64,000 bases of DNA, taken from contig CBDCNP010000002.1 in NCBI GenBank assembly GCA_965219415.1, forward strand, positions 4,832,001-4,896,000, read 5' to 3'. The stretch comes from Candidatus Marinacidobacterales bacterium (GTDB taxonomy: Bacteria; Acidobacteriota; Vicinamibacteria; Marinacidobacterales; DATDRI01). Under the pieces are notes generated by a model that saw only the letters and a program-made list of their open reading frames with translations, searched no databases and was not told where the DNA came from. Below are positions 837 to 57,600 of this stretch, piece after piece. Position numbers and translations under genes: made by a program. Positions within the stretch are counted from its first letter, which is position 1. Every line of letters begins with the position of its first letter.

Positions 837-2036
837 GGTGCTTCCGCAATTAAGTGTTGGCGGCCAGCCCCTAACCGGTCTGCGTGCTAGAGTTTGGACC
901 AGAATTCCGAAGACACAGTTCTCTCATCGTCAGGGCCGAGCCAAAGTGAAGAATCGCAGATGTCTCAATCTCGCATGTCCGTTGCGGGGCAAAGTCAGTT
1001 CCGGAAACATCGTTCGCCACGGATTCTACCGAACCAGGTCCGGGAAACGCCGTCGATACCGGTGCGGCGAGTGCGGAAAGACGTTCTCCTCGACGAAAGG
1101 CACGCCCTACTACCGTCTCCAACATCGAAGAGCTACTTTCGATGGAGTCATCGCTCTCAGAGTCGAGGGTGTCAGCATTTCCGCGATTTCCCGGATCAAA
1201 GGGATTGCCTGGAACACCGTCGCCCGCTGGCTCGAGAAGGCAGCCCAAGGGTGTCGTCGATTCAATCACAGAAGGATCGCTGGCTTCGCTGCCGAAGAGC
1301 TTCAAGCCGACGAGATTCGCACGTTCGCGGGCAACAAGAAGACACCGAGTTGGGTCTTCGTTACGATCGAGGTCTGGTCTCGGCTCTGGCCATCGACGGT
1401 GACGGGAAGGCGAAGCTACCGGAACACTCACGCTCTGTTTCGCGACCTTTCGAGACGGATGAATTTCGAGCGTCTTCCCTTGATCGTCACGGATGGATTC
1501 GAATTCTACCAGAAGGTCATCCGTCGCTTCTTCGGTCCAGCGTGTCTCTACGGCCAGGTCCTAAAAACGCGCAGGAACGATCGTATCATCAAGGTCGAAC
1601 GCAGAGCGCTGCACGGAGCCGCGTGGCGATTCGAAGACGCGCTCAATAACTCCGAGGACTCTTCGACATTGAACACGTCGTTCATCGAGCGGTTGAATCT
1701 GACCATCCGGCAAAGCTCGGCATACCTTTCGAGACGAACGCTTTCCCACGCTCGCTCGACGGAGAGGCTCGATGAGCACCTGGAGTTGCTCCGTTGCTAT
1801 TACAACTTCGTCCGACCGCACGGAGCTCTGAAGTTCGGACGTGAGATCCGAACTCCGGCTATGCAGGCTGGTCTGACCACGCGACGGCTCACCTTTCGAG
1901 ACATCTTCTTGGCGACGACTATTCCTTTGTGGTCGCGGATCGAGGTTTTCGTGCTCAGTAGGGCGCGCAACCCGGTCTCTTCCGCACCTGTACCACTGCC
2001 CGCAGCCGCGTAGCAACACTTGATGGCGGAAGCACC
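837..2036 (+). mobile_element. IS1-family-like insertion sequence (copy 1, intact)
   Basis: TIRs GGTGCTTCCGCAATTAAGTGTTG / CAACACTTGATGGCGGAAGCACC enclose a transposase. Confidence 0.85.
946..2013 (+). CDS. IS1-family transposase (Zn ribbon, HTH, DDE)
   Basis: CxxxxC and CxxC, ADEI, VTDG, NTSFIERLNLTIR, YYNFVRPH and TPAMQAGL motifs; GTG start chosen inside the TIR-bounded element. Confidence 0.85.
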   Translation: MKNRRCLNLACPLRGKVSSGNIVRHGFYRTRSGKRRRYRCGECGKTFSSTKGTPYYRLQHRRATFDGVIALRVEGVSISAISRIKGIAWNTVARWLEKAAQGCRRFNHRRIAGFAAEELQADEIRTFAGNKKTPSWVFVTIEVWSRLWPSTVTGRRSYRNTHALFRDLSRRMNFERLPLIVTDGFEFYQKVIRRFFGPACLYGQVLKTRRNDRIIKVERRALHGAAWRFEDALNNSEDSSTLNTSFIERLNLTIRQSSAYLSRRTLSHARSTERLDEHLELLRCYYNFVRPHGALKFGREIRTPAMQAGLTTRRLTFRDIFLATTIPLWSRIEVFVLSRARNPVSSAPVPLPAAA

Positions 2037-25781: not shown

Positions 25782-26268
25782 TGGCAGGCAGGCTGGAGAT
25801 AGGTCAACGAGTGGATAGGCGCTGCGTCGTGCCCGTCGAGCTGAATCCGGTCGTAACAGGCGACGGTCGCGTGTTACGACCCTTAACTGGAGAGTGCCCC
25901 TGTGAGTAGTTCGATTGTAGTTCAGCTGCCCGAACGACCCCGTCCTGTGCCGGTGCTTACGCTGTTTGCTGTTGGTGATGTGTACGTATCCCTTTGCAAA
26001 AAAATCGCTTACGCTTCATTTAGCGCGCGGCGAAGGTCGCGAGCGCTATTTTGGCTGTAATTTAATGCAGCGTAAAGTCTTAGCGTCATCTCACCAACAC
26101 TTAATGGCAGAAGCACCCCATTACATGCGATGGCGGTCGTCGGCACACGCAGACCAACTGACACTAGCATTCAAACGCGGCGTAGCAACACTTGATGGCG
26201 GAAGCGCCCACGGAACTATTAAGCGTTTCAAGATATTGGTGCATTTATAGACGCATTACAGAATGCAC

Positions 26269-50617: not shown

Positions 50618-52033
50618 CTAGCTGAAGTCCACCCCGAAGAACAGCACCGCGATGATGATCGCCGCCACGGCCAGCGGCGACACGAACTGAATGAAGAACC
50701 GCCACGCTCCATAGTTGAACCACCTGGGTTCTGAGCCATCCACGAGCTCCCGCTCGGTGTACTTGCGCGTCAGGAACCAGCCCGCCGCGATCGTGATCGC
50801 AAATCCCCCGGTCGGGAGCATCCAGTTCGACACGAAGTGGTCGACCATGCCGAACCAGCTCGCCTTGCCGCCGAAGAGCATCTGGCCGAGCGCGCCGCCG
50901 AGTTGGAGCTCGGTGATCGCGCCGACACCACCGAACGACAACGCGGCGAGGACCGTGAAGGCAAACACCGCACCACCACACAGCAGCGTCGCCGTGGCCC
51001 GCGGCATGTGGTGTTCGTCGATCACGTAGGCAGCGACCACTTCCAGTAGCGACATCGTCGAGGTGAGCGCCGCGAGGGCCACCAGCACGTAGAAGAGTGG
51101 CCCCAGGAATGCCCCGAACGGGACCTCGGTGAAGAACAGCTGCGGCAGCGAGATGAAGAGCATCCCCACAGTGCCCGTGCCGCTGACCTGCTCATCCATA
51201 CCCGGCACGCTGAAGATCACCGAGAACATGATCACCGTGGCCACGAGTGCGATCAGCGTATCGAGCACGACGATGATCGCCGAGGCTTTCACGATCGACT
51301 GATGCGTTGCGATGTACGAGCCGTACGTCACCATCGTGCCCATGCCGAGCGAGAGCGTGAAGAACGCGTGGCCGAGCGCCTCGAGGACGCTCCCCCCATC
51401 CAACTCGCCGAAGCGCGGCAGGAAGATGAAGCGGAGCGCCTCACCGGCCCCGGCCATCTCCAAGGCGGAGACGAGCAGCAAGACGAGGATCCCGAAGAGA
51501 ATCGGCAGAAAGACACGCGCGATGCGCTCGATGCCCTTTTGGACGCCGAAGTAGACGACCGAGACCGTGGCGATACTGAACCCGAGAGACAAGCCAAGCT
51601 GCAGGCCGCCATTGGCCGCCTGCGCACCGAACAGCTCGCCCATCGAGGCGCCCGCCGGGAATCCACCGACCGACCAGCCCGCGGACTTGGCGAAGTAGAA
51701 GAGCGACCAGCCCGCAATCACCGTGTAGTAGCTGAGCAGCAGAAAGCCGCAGAGCACGCCCCAGAGGCCAACGATGTCCCACGCCGGCCCGATGGCCTGC
51801 TTGAGCGCCCCGACCACGCTCTTCTGCGTCGCTCGCCCGATCAGCAGTTCGGCCATCATGATGGGCAGGCCCACGGCGGCGATGCACACGAGGTACACGA
51901 GGACGAAGGCCCCGCCGTTGTTCTCCCACGTGACGAACGGAAACTTCCACAGGTTGCCGAGGCCGATCGCGCTCCCGGTCGCGGCGAGAATTAAGCCGGT
52001 GTTCGAACTCCAATGGCCGCGCGGCTCTGACAT
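50618..52033 (-). CDS. Sodium-dependent transporter, NSS/SNF family
   Basis: GSAIGLGNLWKFP, NGGAF, AFFTLSLGMG motifs. Confidence 0.92.
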   Translation of the reverse strand: MSEPRGHWSSNTGLILAATGSAIGLGNLWKFPFVTWENNGGAFVLVYLVCIAAVGLPIMMAELLIGRATQKSVVGALKQAIGPAWDIVGLWGVLCGFLLLSYYTVIAGWSLFYFAKSAGWSVGGFPAGASMGELFGAQAANGGLQLGLSLGFSIATVSVVYFGVQKGIERIARVFLPILFGILVLLLVSALEMAGAGEALRFIFLPRFGELDGGSVLEALGHAFFTLSLGMGTMVTYGSYIATHQSIVKASAIIVVLDTLIALVATVIMFSVIFSVPGMDEQVSGTGTVGMLFISLPQLFFTEVPFGAFLGPLFYVLVALAALTSTMSLLEVVAAYVIDEHHMPRATATLLCGGAVFAFTVLAALSFGGVGAITELQLGGALGQMLFGGKASWFGMVDHFVSNWMLPTGGFAITIAAGWFLTRKYTERELVDGSEPRWFNYGAWRFFIQFVSPLAVAAIIIAVLFFGVDFS

Positions 52034-52336
52034 GTGTCGTTCTCCGATCGATGGCGTGGTCTACGGGAGGCGATGCGGCCCCAACAGATCCCGGCCCGTG
52101 AAGTCTCGCCCAGTAGACGTTACGTAAATACTCTAAAGGATTTCTGTCGGACCAGCGAGCGGCACGGCAGTATCGCGCGTCAGCACGCCACGGAAAGTCA
52201 TCCGACCGTGGCGGCCGCCACGCACCTGGGTACTGGGTGCTTCCGCCATCAAGTGATGGAATGGACTCCTCCACTGACATAGACGGCATCGATGTGCCAA
52301 AGTCAGTCGAATACGCATCGAAAAGGAGGAGTCCGA

Positions 52337-53368
52337 ATGAAAGATACGACAATCGCTGTGGATCTTGCAAAGAACGTCTTCGAGATTGCCATCTCGGGAG
52401 AAGCGGGGAAGGTGTCCAAGCAACTCCGTGTGAGTCGACCCAAATTGGTGTCGTTCTTTGCCAAACAGAGCGCTGCCACCGTGCTTCTCGAAGCCTGCGG
52501 CTCGGCTCACTTCTGGGCAAGGACGTTCCGAAGGTTGGGACACGACGTCGTCCTGCTCCCACCTCACCTCGTGAGGCCGTATCGACGCGGGAGCAAGAAC
52601 GACCGCGCCGACACGAAGGCGTTGCTCGAGGCCTACAGGAACGAGGAGCTTCTTCCCGTACCCATCAAGTCCGTGCACCAGCACACCCTCGCTGCGCTCC
52701 ATCGCCTGCGCTCAGGATGGCTCTCCACACGGACCGCACGCATCAATGCCGTACGCGGGCTCCTGCGCGAACTCGGATTCATCATCCCAAAGGGCGCTCA
52801 CTTCGTCGTGCCCGCCCTCTTCGAACTCGTCGAAGACGCTGATTCTGATTTGCCCGACGTGCTCCGTTCGCATCTCCGTGATGCCTGCTCCGAGATTCGA
52901 GAACTCAAGGACAAGTGCGCTAGCATCGAGCACGAGCTCAAGGCGCTCACCAAGCAGCTTCCTGAAGTCCAACGACTTCTCGCCATTCCCGGCATCGGAC
53001 TTCTGGCCGCGACCGCCATCGTGGGCTTCGTCGGCGATCTTCGCCGCTTCCCATCGGGGCGCCGCTTCTCGAGCTACCTCGGCCTAGTTCCCAAGGAAAA
53101 CTCCAGTGGCGACATTCGCCGCCTCGGACGCATCACCAAGCGTGGCGACTCCTACCTCCGTATGCTCCTCACCCAGGGCGGGCGCGCCGTGCTCCGCGCG
53201 GCGAACGTCAGCAAGAGCCCGCCCGACAAGCTCCGCGCCTGGGCTCGGAAGGTCCACCGCTCGCGGGGACACAACAAGGCCGTGATTGCTGTCGCCAACA
53301 AACTCGCCCGGATCGTCTGGGCCGTCTCCACCCGCGAGAGTGAATTCCAGTCGCCGGTGGCCGCTTAG
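52337..53368 (+). CDS. IS110 DEDD recombinase/transposase
   Basis: AVDLAK, LEAC, KNDRAD, IPGIG, GLVP..NSSG, AVANKLAR motifs. Confidence 0.95.
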   Translation: MKDTTIAVDLAKNVFEIAISGEAGKVSKQLRVSRPKLVSFFAKQSAATVLLEACGSAHFWARTFRRLGHDVVLLPPHLVRPYRRGSKNDRADTKALLEAYRNEELLPVPIKSVHQHTLAALHRLRSGWLSTRTARINAVRGLLRELGFIIPKGAHFVVPALFELVEDADSDLPDVLRSHLRDACSEIRELKDKCASIEHELKALTKQLPEVQRLLAIPGIGLLAATAIVGFVGDLRRFPSGRRFSSYLGLVPKENSSGDIRRLGRITKRGDSYLRMLLTQGGRAVLRAANVSKSPPDKLRAWARKVHRSRGHNKAVIAVANKLARIVWAVSTRESEFQSPVAA

Positions 53369-53409
53369 ATTTAGAGGCTCCACTTTCGTGTTTTCCTTTT
53401 TCCCTTCCA

Positions 53410-53600
53410 AAAGAGGCTGCGACGATACCCATCCAACTGATGGCGTACCGGTCGGACCGGCGCGGGGTCAAGCCAATAGCAACACTGGCCCTAAGAGGTC
53501 GTTCAAAGTGATTGGCTCCTCGCGCGCGGATTTTCCATCATGGCCCGGAGCACCCAAGACGCTCCTCACTGAGGCCGAAGATACGTTTGCAGTCTGACCC
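53410..53600 (+). ncRNA. Putative bridge/seek RNA of the IS1111 element (boundaries approximate)
   Basis: Contains target-matching TAGCAACACT and AAGTG and donor-matching TTCCATCA and AGATACG segments within stem-loops. Confidence 0.75.
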
Positions 53601-53700
53601 ACTCGTCACGACGCGATGGATGCGCAGCTTCGATGGAAGATTTATTAAGAAAGGGGCGTGACTAGAAAGAAAGGGGCTTGACTAGAGGAGTCCAGATATG

Positions 53701-54882
53701 TTGCTACGCGGCTGCGGGCAGTGGTACAGGTGCGGAAGAGACCGGGTTGCGCGCCCTACTGAGCACGAAAACCTCGATCCGCGACCGCAAAGGAATCGTC
53801 GTCGCCAAGAAGATGTCTCGAAAGGTGAGCCGTCGCGTGGTCAGACCAGCCTGCATAGCCGGAGTTCGGATCTCACGTCCGAACTTCAGAGCTCCGTGCG
53901 GTCGGACGAAGTTGTAATAGCAACGGAGCAACTCTAGGTGCTCATCGAGCCTCTCCGTCGAGCGAGCGTGGGAAAGCGTTCGTCTCGAAAGGTATGCCGA
54001 GCTTTGCCGGATGGTCAGATTTAACCGCTCGATGAACGACGTGTTCAATGTCGAGGAGTCCTCGGAGTTATTGAGCGCGTCTTCGAATCGCCACGCGGCT
54101 CCGTGCAGCGCTCTGCGTTCGACCTTGATGATGCGACCGTTCCTGCGCGTCTTGAGGACCTGGCCGTAGAGACACGCTGGCCCGAAGAAGCGACGGATGA
54201 CCTTCTGGTAGAATTCGAATCCATCCGTGACGATCAAGGGAAGACGTCCGAAACTCATCCGTCTCGAAAGGTCGCGAAACAGAGCGTGAGTGTTCCGGTA
54301 GCTTCGCCTTCCCGTCACCGTCGATGGCCAGAGCCGAGACCAGACTTCGATTGTAACGAAGACCCAACTCGGTGTCTTCCTGTTGCCCGCGAACGTGCGA
54401 ATCTCGTCGGCTTGAAGCTCTTCGGCAGCGAAGCCAGCGATCCTTCTGTGATTGAATCGACGACACACTTGGGCTGCCTTCTCGAGCCAGCGGGCGACGG
54501 TGTTCCAGGCAATCCCTTTGATCCGGGAAATCGAGGAAATGCTGACACCCTCGACTCTGAGAGCGATGACCCCCCATCGAAAGTAGCTCTTCGATGTTGG
54601 AGACGGTAGTAGGGCGTGCCTTTCGTCGAGGAGAACGTCTTTCCGCACTCGCCGCACCGGTATCGACGGCGTTTCCCGGACCTGGTTCTGTAGAATCCGT
54701 GGCGAACGATGTTTCCGGAACTGACTTTGCGCCGCAACGGACATGCGAGATTGAGACATCTGCGATTCTTCACTTTGGCTCGGCCCTGAAGATGAAAGAA
54801 CTGTGTCTTCGGAATTCTGGTTCAAACTCTAGCACGCAGACCGGTTAGGGGCTGGCCGCCAACACTTAATTGCGGAAGCACC
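53701..54882 (-). mobile_element. IS1-family-like copy 2; frameshifted transposase; tip of the right TIR displaced to 52236-52255
   Basis: Near-identical to 837-2036; GGAG has become GGGGGG near 54570. Confidence 0.85.
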
Positions 54883-55178
54883 GTATTTGGATCGGGCGCA
54901 GGCCGACGATCGCTGGCACGTGATTCGCTAAAGCGCGGGGGATGAACTGGTGCAGATAAGCCGTAGCGTTGTCTGCATAGATCTACAATTCTCATTGGGC
55001 CAAAAAGTTGCGGGCTCAGATTGGCTCCTGTACATTTAGACTGAAAGTTCCGACCTGTGCCTGGAGCAATGTAGACGAGCAGGAGGATGGGAATGCGGCG
55101 AATTGCAGTGATCGGTGTGATGACTACGGCGGCGGCTGTCGTTTTGCCCTCGGCCTCACAGGCGTCAACTGGGAGGGG

Positions 55179-57329: not shown

Positions 57330-57600
57330 ACGGTGCGGCCAAGGTCTGGATGCCTAACACCGTATCAAATCATCAATGATGAGGTATGAGAGAACATCAT
57401 TCGTACCGCTCCATCAAAATCACGCGAACCGCCAGGTGCTTCCGCCATTAAGTGTTGGTGAGATGACGCTAAGACTTTACGGTGCATTAAATTACAGCCA
57501 AAATAGCGCTCGCGACCTTCGCTGCGCGCTAAATAGAGCGTAAACGACTCTTTGCAACTGGATACGTACACATCACCAACACTTAATGGCGGAAGCACCG

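Follow-up and report, generated by a model that had tools for sequence, protein, structure and literature searches.

A putatively RNA-guided IS1111-group insertion sequence targeted to the terminal inverted repeat of an IS1-like element in Candidatus Marinacidobacterales

Partridge and Hall, in work from 2003, reportedly showed that the insertion sequences (ISs) IS4321 and IS5075, members of the IS1111 family, target the terminal inverted repeats (TIRs) of Tn21-family transposons. In this study, we describe an element with a comparable habit in a Candidatus Marinacidobacterales bacterium, found within a 64,000-nt stretch (hereafter the window, whose positions serve as coordinates throughout) of a host genome of 8.05 Mb in 3 contigs. 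The element is a 1445-bp IS of the IS1111 group of the IS110 family, which occupies 52256..53700 on the + strand and splits the right TIR of an IS1-like element. As is reported of IS4321 and IS5075, it has subterminal inverted repeats and sits at one position and in one orientation inside the TIR of another transposable element. The hosts differ, being a Tn3-family transposon of Proteobacteria in their case and, in ours, an IS1-like IS together with miniature inverted-repeat transposable elements (MITEs) of an acidobacterial genome. We give a probability of about 90% to the overall explanation that the window carries a recently active IS1111-group element, guided by an RNA to those TIRs of the IS1-like family that carry TTGCTA at the insertion point (TTGCTA-type TIRs).

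IS1111 elements are described as carrying a seekRNA in the right end, in which the complement of the target top strand lies 5' of the match to the bottom strand (PMC11187229, PMC11208160). According to PMC11187229, the RNA of IS1111 relatives proved to be required and reprogrammable in experiments, and the seekRNAs of ISKpn4 and ISPst6 co-purify with their transposases. For ISEc11 and ISXne4, whose seekRNAs provide natural as well as experimental cases of reprogramming, the RNA comes from the region 3' of the gene. The window element and one of its variants (L048, see below) appear to repeat this pattern, with terminal extensions that differ from the 7 and 3 bp of ISEc11 and ISXne4. The bridge RNA of IS621 is similar in having two internal loops, in each of which one strand serves the top and one the bottom strand of target or donor, with an overlap at the dinucleotide (PMC11208160, PMC11208158). 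In IS621, however, the RNA lies in the left end, the guide order is reversed and CT stands at both junctions, whereas in the window family the left junction carries TG and the right junction CG. With regard to landing sites, the founding IS1111 of Coxiella inserts into a palindromic repeat carried by the MITE family QMITE2 (PMC5896051). Both that element and ours use repeats from mobile elements, but the Coxiella site is a palindrome inside the MITE, resembling repetitive extragenic palindromic (REP) sequences, and not a TIR. In the open literature, we found no IS110 or IS1111 element aimed at the ends of the IS1 family; this is weak evidence, because the search was not made by IS1 family name, subscription journals lay mostly outside it, and one may be present among the target logos in the supplement to PMC11187229.

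Removal of 52256-53700 (1445 bp) restores GGTGCTTCCGCCATCAAGTGTTGCTA, which in reverse complement equals the intact IS1-like end located at 2011-2036, as a first-pass annotation of this DNA had noticed. The left junction reads GGTGCTTCCGCCATCAAG-TG|ATGGAA (52236-52261), or GGTGCTTCCGCCATCAAG-TG|ATGGAATGGACTCCTCC when extended to 52272, and the right junction reads CCAGATA-TG|TTGCTAC (53692-53707), within GAGGAGTCCAGATA-TG|TTGCTACGCGG (53685-53710). The right TIR of the host is split 20 bp from its tip. Its outer 18 bp (52236..52253, +) constitute the left half of the target and are severed from the rest of the host. The TG at the left junction (52254..52255, +) is the same as that at 53699-53700, one copy being the element's and the other the target's; owing to this repetition, the boundaries may slide by up to 2 bp. 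We found no conventional target duplication at the junctions, which share only the dinucleotide and, in relatives, only its second base. Moreover, when 24 public runs were examined as assembled contigs, one contig was found to span 52255-53701 as an empty copy of the TIR.

The left end of the element (52256..52272, +) begins with ATGGAA, an extension of 6 bp, after which comes the subterminal inverted repeat TGGACTCCTC(C). At the right end (53685..53700, +), the repeat GAGGAGTCCA is followed by a 4-bp extension, GATA, and TG. The two repeats match perfectly over 10 bp (52262-52271 versus 53685-53694), which corrects the earlier description. In relatives, these repeats measure 12-14 bp, and the range reported for the IS1111 group, 7-17 bp and usually 11-13 bp, includes the 10 bp found here. 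Between the ends lies a transposase (recombinase) gene of 343 aa (52337..53368, +), with AAGGAGG 7 nt 5' of the ATG. The protein matches two IS110-family domains of Pfam (PF01548, 6.9e-12; PF02371, 3.2e-24) and, along its full length, the NCBIfam model NF033542 of IS110 family RNA-guided transposases (2.9e-90; 302.9 bits, cut-off 140). In addition, its translation contains GLVPKENSSG, corresponding to the GL-P----S/TG motif of the C-terminal PF02371 domain. These domain matches identify the product as a predicted DEDD/RuvC-like recombinase. The non-coding DNA amounts to 81 bp upstream of the gene versus 332 nt from the stop codon to the right end (53369-53700). We place the element in the IS1111 group because the 81-bp leader, the 332-bp 3' region and the 10-bp subterminal repeat match the available descriptions of this group (PMC11187229, PMC11208160). 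The domains, the subterminal repeats, the longer 3' non-coding region and the use of a single target in one orientation all agree with this assignment.

The genome contains 30 full-length copies of the element, with 99.4-100% identity, and a few truncated ones, and 28 of the 30 have an intact 343-aa open reading frame (ORF). The same 20-nt TIR flank, in one orientation, precedes all 33 left ends (consensus GGTGCTTC(C/T)GC(C/T)ATCAAGTG), and TTGCTA follows 28 of the 29 readable right ends, the remaining one being followed by TTGGCG. The first-pass annotation had named copies in unrelated targets as what would refute it, and this refutation fails. On the inner side of the TIR, we read the right end of an IS1-like element in 16 copies, a MITE of about 245 bp in 10, a third class in 2 and a TTGG-type end in 1, while the DNA beyond the TIR differs at every copy. 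Therefore, with four host classes and differing outer DNA, the copies are to be seen as independent insertions into a short shared sequence and not as a single amplified composite. An ancestral composite of both elements, spread by IS1-type transposition, would explain the flanks by common descent, and it is true that both the host and the guest exist in many nearly identical copies (35 of the IS1-like element with a length of at least 1100 bp, median identity 98.3%; 30 of the IS1111 element, at least 99.4%). Nevertheless, this passenger scenario is already largely refuted by host diversity, as at least four different hosts share only the TIR. It also leaves 87 TTGCTA-type ends empty, and it does not account for the copies of sister genomes that lie outside any TIR and retain part of the short motif, nor for a variant with altered loop strands that sits in a matching new site. 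Altogether, we regard it as extremely improbable. Target duplications around the host would not discriminate here, since identical flanks are predicted with and without composite movement.

The genome carries about 480 TIR ends of the IS1-like type in several sequence variants, many of them on MITE-like elements of 165-245 bp. Taking as candidate sites the 481 that lie within three mismatches of the 20-nt left half, 33 are occupied. Where the left half is CATCAAGTG, occupancy reaches 27/102 with TTGCTA as the right half versus 1/46 with TTGGnn (Fisher p 1.9e-4). Over all sites, 28/115 are occupied with TTGCTA versus 2/363 with other right halves (Fisher p 8e-17), and one of those two is the internal junction of a tail-duplicated copy (see below). 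Almost solely the TTGCTA type, then, serves the IS1111 element, and the 87 empty ends represent about three quarters of that type. All 80 copies of TCAAGTGTTGCTA in the genome lie within a TIR context.

The 3' non-coding region contains the guide segments at the positions first proposed, and the loop said to be closed by AGCCAAT/ATTGGCT has this stem in the minimum-free-energy fold, in which 53460-53590 folds as a long stem. A predicted target-binding module (53460..53525, +) is formed by stems 53460-53467/53518-53525 and 53471-53477/53511-53517, with an inner hairpin at 53487-53500. The 5' strand of its loop, TAGCAACACT (53477..53486, +), complements the target top strand AG-TG-TTGCTA and is the putative right target guide. 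The 3' strand, GTTCAAAGTG (53501..53510, +), which ends in AAGTG (53506-53510), has the same sense as the target left half (C)AAG-TG and is the putative left target guide. The two strands jointly cover about 12-13 bp, TCAAGTG|TTGCTA, a stretch that occurs in this genome only inside TTGCTA-type TIRs of IS1-like elements and their MITE derivatives. The predicted donor-binding module (53526..53590, +) has a weak outer stem (53526-53528/53588-53590) and inner stems 53542-53545/53573-53576 and 53547-53551/53561-53565. Here, the 5' strand TTCCATCA (53533..53540, +) complements TG-ATGGAA, that is, the dinucleotide and the left end, at 8/8 positions (putative right donor guide), and the 3' strand AGATACG (53579..53585, +) agrees, in the same orientation, with AGATA of the right end and the dinucleotide at 6/7 positions (putative left donor guide). 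Of the match that had been claimed to the predicted circle junction AGATA-TG-ATGGAA, the left-end part is complete, and the right-end part carries the one mismatch already conceded, a C where the DNA has T.

For the window copy alone, 1000 dinucleotide shuffles of the non-coding region gave a 10-nt target match 13 times, a circle-junction match of at least 8 nt 155 times and both together twice. These values are only modestly significant, and the weight of the argument therefore rests on the other copies and on the relatives (designated below by locus numbers). Searched with a covariance model of 5 sequences, the loci of 18 relatives contained the scaffold in 17 cases, the sole miss being a contig that ends before the region, and the relatives with the scaffold reach down to 46% protein identity. 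Helices 1-3, of the target module, have 92.5-96.3% of cells paired and compensatory changes in 11/19 pairs; for helices 4-6, of the donor module, these values are 91.9-98.3% and 6/12. For the whole scaffold in 15 distinct sequences, 94.3% of 455 cells pair and 17/31 pairs show compensatory changes, counts from a model-fitted alignment that flatters the percentage paired and not the compensatory changes. None of 500 shuffles scored as high, and slid partners were paired in 35-45%.

While the stems are conserved in this way, the loop strands follow the DNA that they are proposed to read. For nine elements with a readable right flank, we reverse-complemented the 5' strand and recorded its longest exact match to the element's own dinucleotide plus right flank. 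Cognate pairs averaged 7.2 nt versus 3.8 nt for non-cognate pairs, a difference reached in 0 of 20000 permutations (p about 5e-5). In the donor module, the right-end guide tracks the type of right end (AGATA, ATATA or ATACA), with 7/7 matches in seven relatives, and the left-end guide matches at 6-8 of 8 positions in ten relatives and at 5/8 in L138; it is out of register in L137 and L134, and L129 is without a left end. The right-end guide of a 93% variant reads AGATATG. In the gammaproteobacterial metagenome-assembled genome (MAG) locus L076, with 46% protein identity, all four strands match its own ends and flanks. The right end of L076 was predicted from its guides, and the partial subterminal repeat, the 4-bp extension and the matching flank are all present there.

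Sister genomes provide further sites. In five Candidatus Marinacidobacterales MAG records, with related elements at 91-98% nucleotide identity, we read 47 of 54 left ends as lying in the same TIR; the 7 outside it all end in AGTG. The right flanks of these seven copies are TTGCTT, TTGCTG, TTGCTA, (CG)GTTGCTAGG, ATTGTTATCC, CAGCTC and (AG)TAAGCTG. The right junctions of L050, L051 and L046 read TTGCT, and that of L047 reads G-TTGCTA. The best of these sites, L050 and L051, share TCAAGTG|TTGCT, the stretch covered by the proposed guides, and the sites of L054 and L064 match on the left side only. The seventh, L048 (91% nucleotide identity), has the loop strands TAACAATCGT and TTTGCAGCG and is located at CTCCAG-TG|ATTGTTATCC, with a 10-nt match on the right side. 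A search of its genome for further copies of this reprogrammed variant gave 1 of 26 matches of that type, so that L048 stands as a single example.

These data bear on whether the protein alone, or the subterminal repeats, could choose the target, the matches in the non-coding region being leftovers or chance. The modest improbability of the window-copy matches (13/1000 shuffles) would agree with such a choice, as would the fact that part of the first guide (GAUA/AAUA) sits in a conserved stem and thereby renders right flanks alike across the family. On the other hand, in nine to eleven elements the loop strands change in step with the flanks and ends, stems co-vary while loops change, and the IS1111 relatives examined in PMC11187229 depend on a reprogrammable RNA. 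We therefore consider target choice by the protein alone highly unlikely. The predicted RNA has conserved stems with variable loop strands, strands that match both target strands and a second loop that matches the abutted ends, as in seekRNAs and bridge RNAs. Moreover, these strands occupy the variable loops of a co-varying scaffold, co-vary with targets and ends, and follow the order published for IS1111 seekRNAs. The initial claim of readable guides and RNA guidance is borne out to this extent, and the comparison of sequences supports an element that is targeted to the IS1-like TIR.

Several observations weigh against this explanation, in addition to the model-fitted alignment mentioned above. 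The co-variation of the left guide is weak (3.4 nt for cognate versus 2.8 nt for non-cognate pairs, p 0.044), and this guide is short, with 5 contiguous nt or 8 with a bulge. The right-end guide carries one mismatch to the element's own junction, and the guides fit poorly in the single-copy relatives L132, L136 (right side) and L137. A scan of 52000-54000 against Rfam (E up to 1) detected no bridge RNA or seekRNA family, only a chance microRNA-like match of 22.5 bits against a gathering score of 70. Contigs from RNA libraries (3 runs) align to parts of the gene and the non-coding region with 90-99% likeness, but contigs cannot show transcription, strand or RNA ends. Among the joints listed for the contigs, none runs from the right end back to the left end, which contigs could in any case hardly reveal. 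Finally, the terminal extensions, 6+2 on the left and 4+2 on the right, sum to 12 instead of the usual 10. In PMC11187229, extensions of 7 bp on the left and 3 bp on the right are given as usual for IS1111 elements, occasionally 6 and 3. This 7/3 rule is usual and not strictly defining for the group, and the 6+2 / 4+2 pattern is common to the whole clade, ISPa25 included.

When examined for handshake-type pairing, the two bases past the dinucleotide fit the target's own AG in the window element and not the donor, and they followed no consistent pattern in the family. The 6-mer CCATCA is common to the left half of the TIR (52245-52250) and to the strand TTCCATCA (53535-53540), that is, to target and donor in opposite senses, which may be chance.

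The first-pass annotation had also proposed a new specificity with a TG/CA core. This holds for the two junctions of the window element and does not hold as a core of the family. In L076, L136, L128, L138 and ISPa25, the left junction has TG and the right junction CG; exceptions are L132 with GG on the left, L129, which is without a left flank, and L130, in which CA precedes CG on the right. The target guides of most relatives read CG, and so does the right-end guide in nearly all relatives and in the window element. L047, a non-TIR insertion by the TG-reading 93% variant, likewise shows TG at its left junction and CG at its right. From L047 and the pattern of the relatives it follows that only the G is common, that the T travels with the left end and that the right base comes from the target. 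TG at both junctions of the window element is a property of a target that happens to carry TG, and not a new rule. In IS621, the second base of the dinucleotide is nearly invariant and the first is loose (PMC11208158); the window family, correspondingly, shows an invariant G preceded by T or C. What this left/right pattern may mean for strand exchange is a matter of speculation.

The closest named transposase found, in a plasmid collection, was that of ISPa25 (45.9% identity over 99% of the query). ISPa25 has an identical left end, TG-ATGGAA-TGGACTCCTCC, with the same extension and repeat, and the covariance model finds the same RNA scaffold in it (73.7 bits), with a right-end guide that matches its own right end at 7/7. 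A fold like those of the ISKpn4 and ISPst6 seekRNAs has been predicted for ISPa25 (PMC11187229). In sequence and in RNA scaffold, the window element groups with these IS1111 relatives, which target attC sites. The two elements differ in target: ISPa25 lies beside ...GTTAGCC in an integron cassette array and has CG at its right junction, whereas the window element lies at TTGCTAC inside a TIR and has TG. The right flanks of relatives resemble each other (TTGTTAGGCG, GTTGTTAGGTGG, CTGTTAGCCG; ACTTGTTAGCC in ISPa25), a likeness due in part to the conserved stem that includes the outer part of the guide. The rebuilt empty sites of L136 and L128 fold as long, imperfect hairpins whose two arms carry GGCTAAC and GTTAGGY, respectively, and targeting of attC sites is described as the habit of an IS1111 subgroup (PMC11187229). 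By analogy, these acidobacterial sites may be attC sites as well.

In a transposase tree of 16 rows, from which L136 and L138 (broken frames) and L141 and L144 (duplicates) were dropped, the window element, L048 and L049 form a clade with 100/100 support, nested with 83-86% support among relatives that have other targets. The lineage looks like an offshoot of the attC-targeting IS1111 group that a small number of loop-strand substitutions redirected to the TIR. The midpoint root falls on a long branch and is insecure, which leaves the direction open to reversal. A broader reconstruction would join these points: an ancestor of attC type, altered at a few positions of two loop strands, came to insert into the ends of an IS1-like family that was expanding, and it is now a brake on this family that splits about one quarter of the TTGCTA-type ends; in the dinucleotide, the donor supplies the first base at the left junction and the target supplies it at the right junction. 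Taken as a whole, we consider this reconstruction doubtful. If true, such inheritance of the base would fit retained top-strand information or a blunt crossover, and not a symmetric 2-bp core as in IS621.

By analogy with published relatives, the RNA would bind the recombinase and pair with target and donor, and insertion by recombination would take place 20 bp into the TIR and in one orientation. The strands of the second loop match the left end (TG-ATGGAA) and the right end (AGATA-YG), that is, the junction of abutted ends that would be expected in an excised circle. The element would thereby live as a parasite of another family of mobile elements. The mechanism is already known, and the element is a very clean natural example of it, a new IS with a well-precedented habit. 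Its chief value consists in unusually clear natural specificity data that leave the known mechanism unchanged. About 480 closely related candidate sites that differ at few positions within one genome amount to a natural specificity experiment, in which occupancy follows the guide sequence, and further natural cases come from sister genomes in the form of off-target sites and a single naturally reprogrammed variant. These data indicate how much of the target an IS1111-type guide reads in vivo: about 7 bp in the right half and 5-7 bp in the left half, the first base of the crossover being loose. With a 343-aa protein, a predicted RNA of about 130 nt and a fully defined cognate target and donor, the system is also a compact candidate for recombinase engineering.

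The host of the window copy comprises 53701-54883 and 52236-52255, about 1.2 kb, and a second copy is present at 837-2036. Its interrupted remainder (53701..54883, -) ends in a left TIR (54858-54883) of the TTGGCG type, a type hit once in the genome; the left TIR (...AATTAAGTGTTGGCG) thus differs from the right (...CATCAAGTGTTGCTA). The host protein matches the NCBIfam IS1 family transposase model NF033558 (E 8.3e-16; 58.5 bits, cut-off 100), the Pfam model DDE_Tnp_IS1 (20 bits, cut-off 24.1) and a zinc-finger domain (E 1.1e-3; 19.4 bits, cut-off 28). As the matches to IS1 models are significant and yet under the curated cut-offs, IS1-like appears a fair name for the host. TIRs of IS1 itself measure about 25 bp and begin with GGTG. 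In the host, a 152-aa zinc-finger ORF (CxxC...CxxC; 54315-54773, -) overlaps the 5' part of a 373-aa transposase ORF (53704-54825, -) in a different frame, also in the copy at 837-2036, an arrangement that looks like the programmed frameshift of IS1. Of the two unoccupied sites previously pointed out, near 2011 and 26183, the first is exact and is the intact right TIR of the copy at 837-2036 (2011..2036, -). The second (26183..26208, -) is a TTGCTA-type end with 1 mismatch, which by our reading lies on a MITE-like derivative fragment and not on a full IS. Further ends of the IS1-like TIR type in the window, taken over all its sequence variants, are for example at 57435-57599, 25952-26118, 13971, 16774, 40505, 45112, 50254 and 55828. 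At the tip of the intact right end (2026-2047), the last 11 bases, GCGGAAGCACC, occur twice in succession.

It was also suggested at first that the element is a hyperparasite that immobilises its host. An insertion may do so, as 1445 bp come to separate the tip of the TIR from its remainder; in DDE transposons, such a separation should break an end, and the same argument is said to have been made for IS4321 and IS5075 in Tn21-family ends. The TIR could instead be merely a safe and abundant landing site, like REP or attC sites, with a host that is not disabled or whose fate is irrelevant, in which case the wording of the suggestion was too strong. The use of the same site on MITEs without a transposase, the emptiness of about three quarters of the TTGCTA-type ends and the use of non-mobile structured repeats by relatives all speak for such a site, and the broken end speaks against it. 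As a denial of harm to the host we find this possible, if rather unlikely; as a description of the TIR, a safe and abundant landing site is equally fair, MITEs being hit too. With respect to ecology, one mobile element of an IS-rich acidobacterial genome resides almost wholly inside the ends of another family.

Some observations concern the right end of the element. A tandem duplication of 20 bp, AAGAAAGGGGC[G/T]TGACTAGA (53647-53686), immediately precedes the subterminal repeat of this end and doubles a TTGACT/GTGACT hexamer. It is present in most copies of the genome, with at least two copies lacking it, and absent from the 98%, 93% and 91% variants of sister genomes. We also inspected the abutted ends by eye for a junction promoter, where TTGACT of the right end is separated by 13 nt from TATGAT and by 18 nt from TGGAAT; neither combination of spacing and hexamers was convincing. 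In L076, the segment L076:3385-3447, inside the right end, is a 64-bp copy (87.5% identical) of the left-flanking DNA at L076:1850-1913, for which a captured flank and a neighbouring paralogous repeat are both candidates. Moreover, contigs of two RNA libraries from different studies match both sides of 53467-53571, with 87 and 99 other letters replacing 53468-53558 and 53468-53570, respectively, as relatives with the same scaffold and different loops would give. Finally, six copies (G000:C3:3315125-3316853, L032, L040, L041, L046 and L057) are tail-duplicated, the last 290-460 bp of a complete element being repeated directly behind it. Their right ends are joined to internal positions at about 950, 1028, 1086, 1117 and 1159, some of the junctions reading GATACG, and they look like products of recombination at weak internal look-alike sites.

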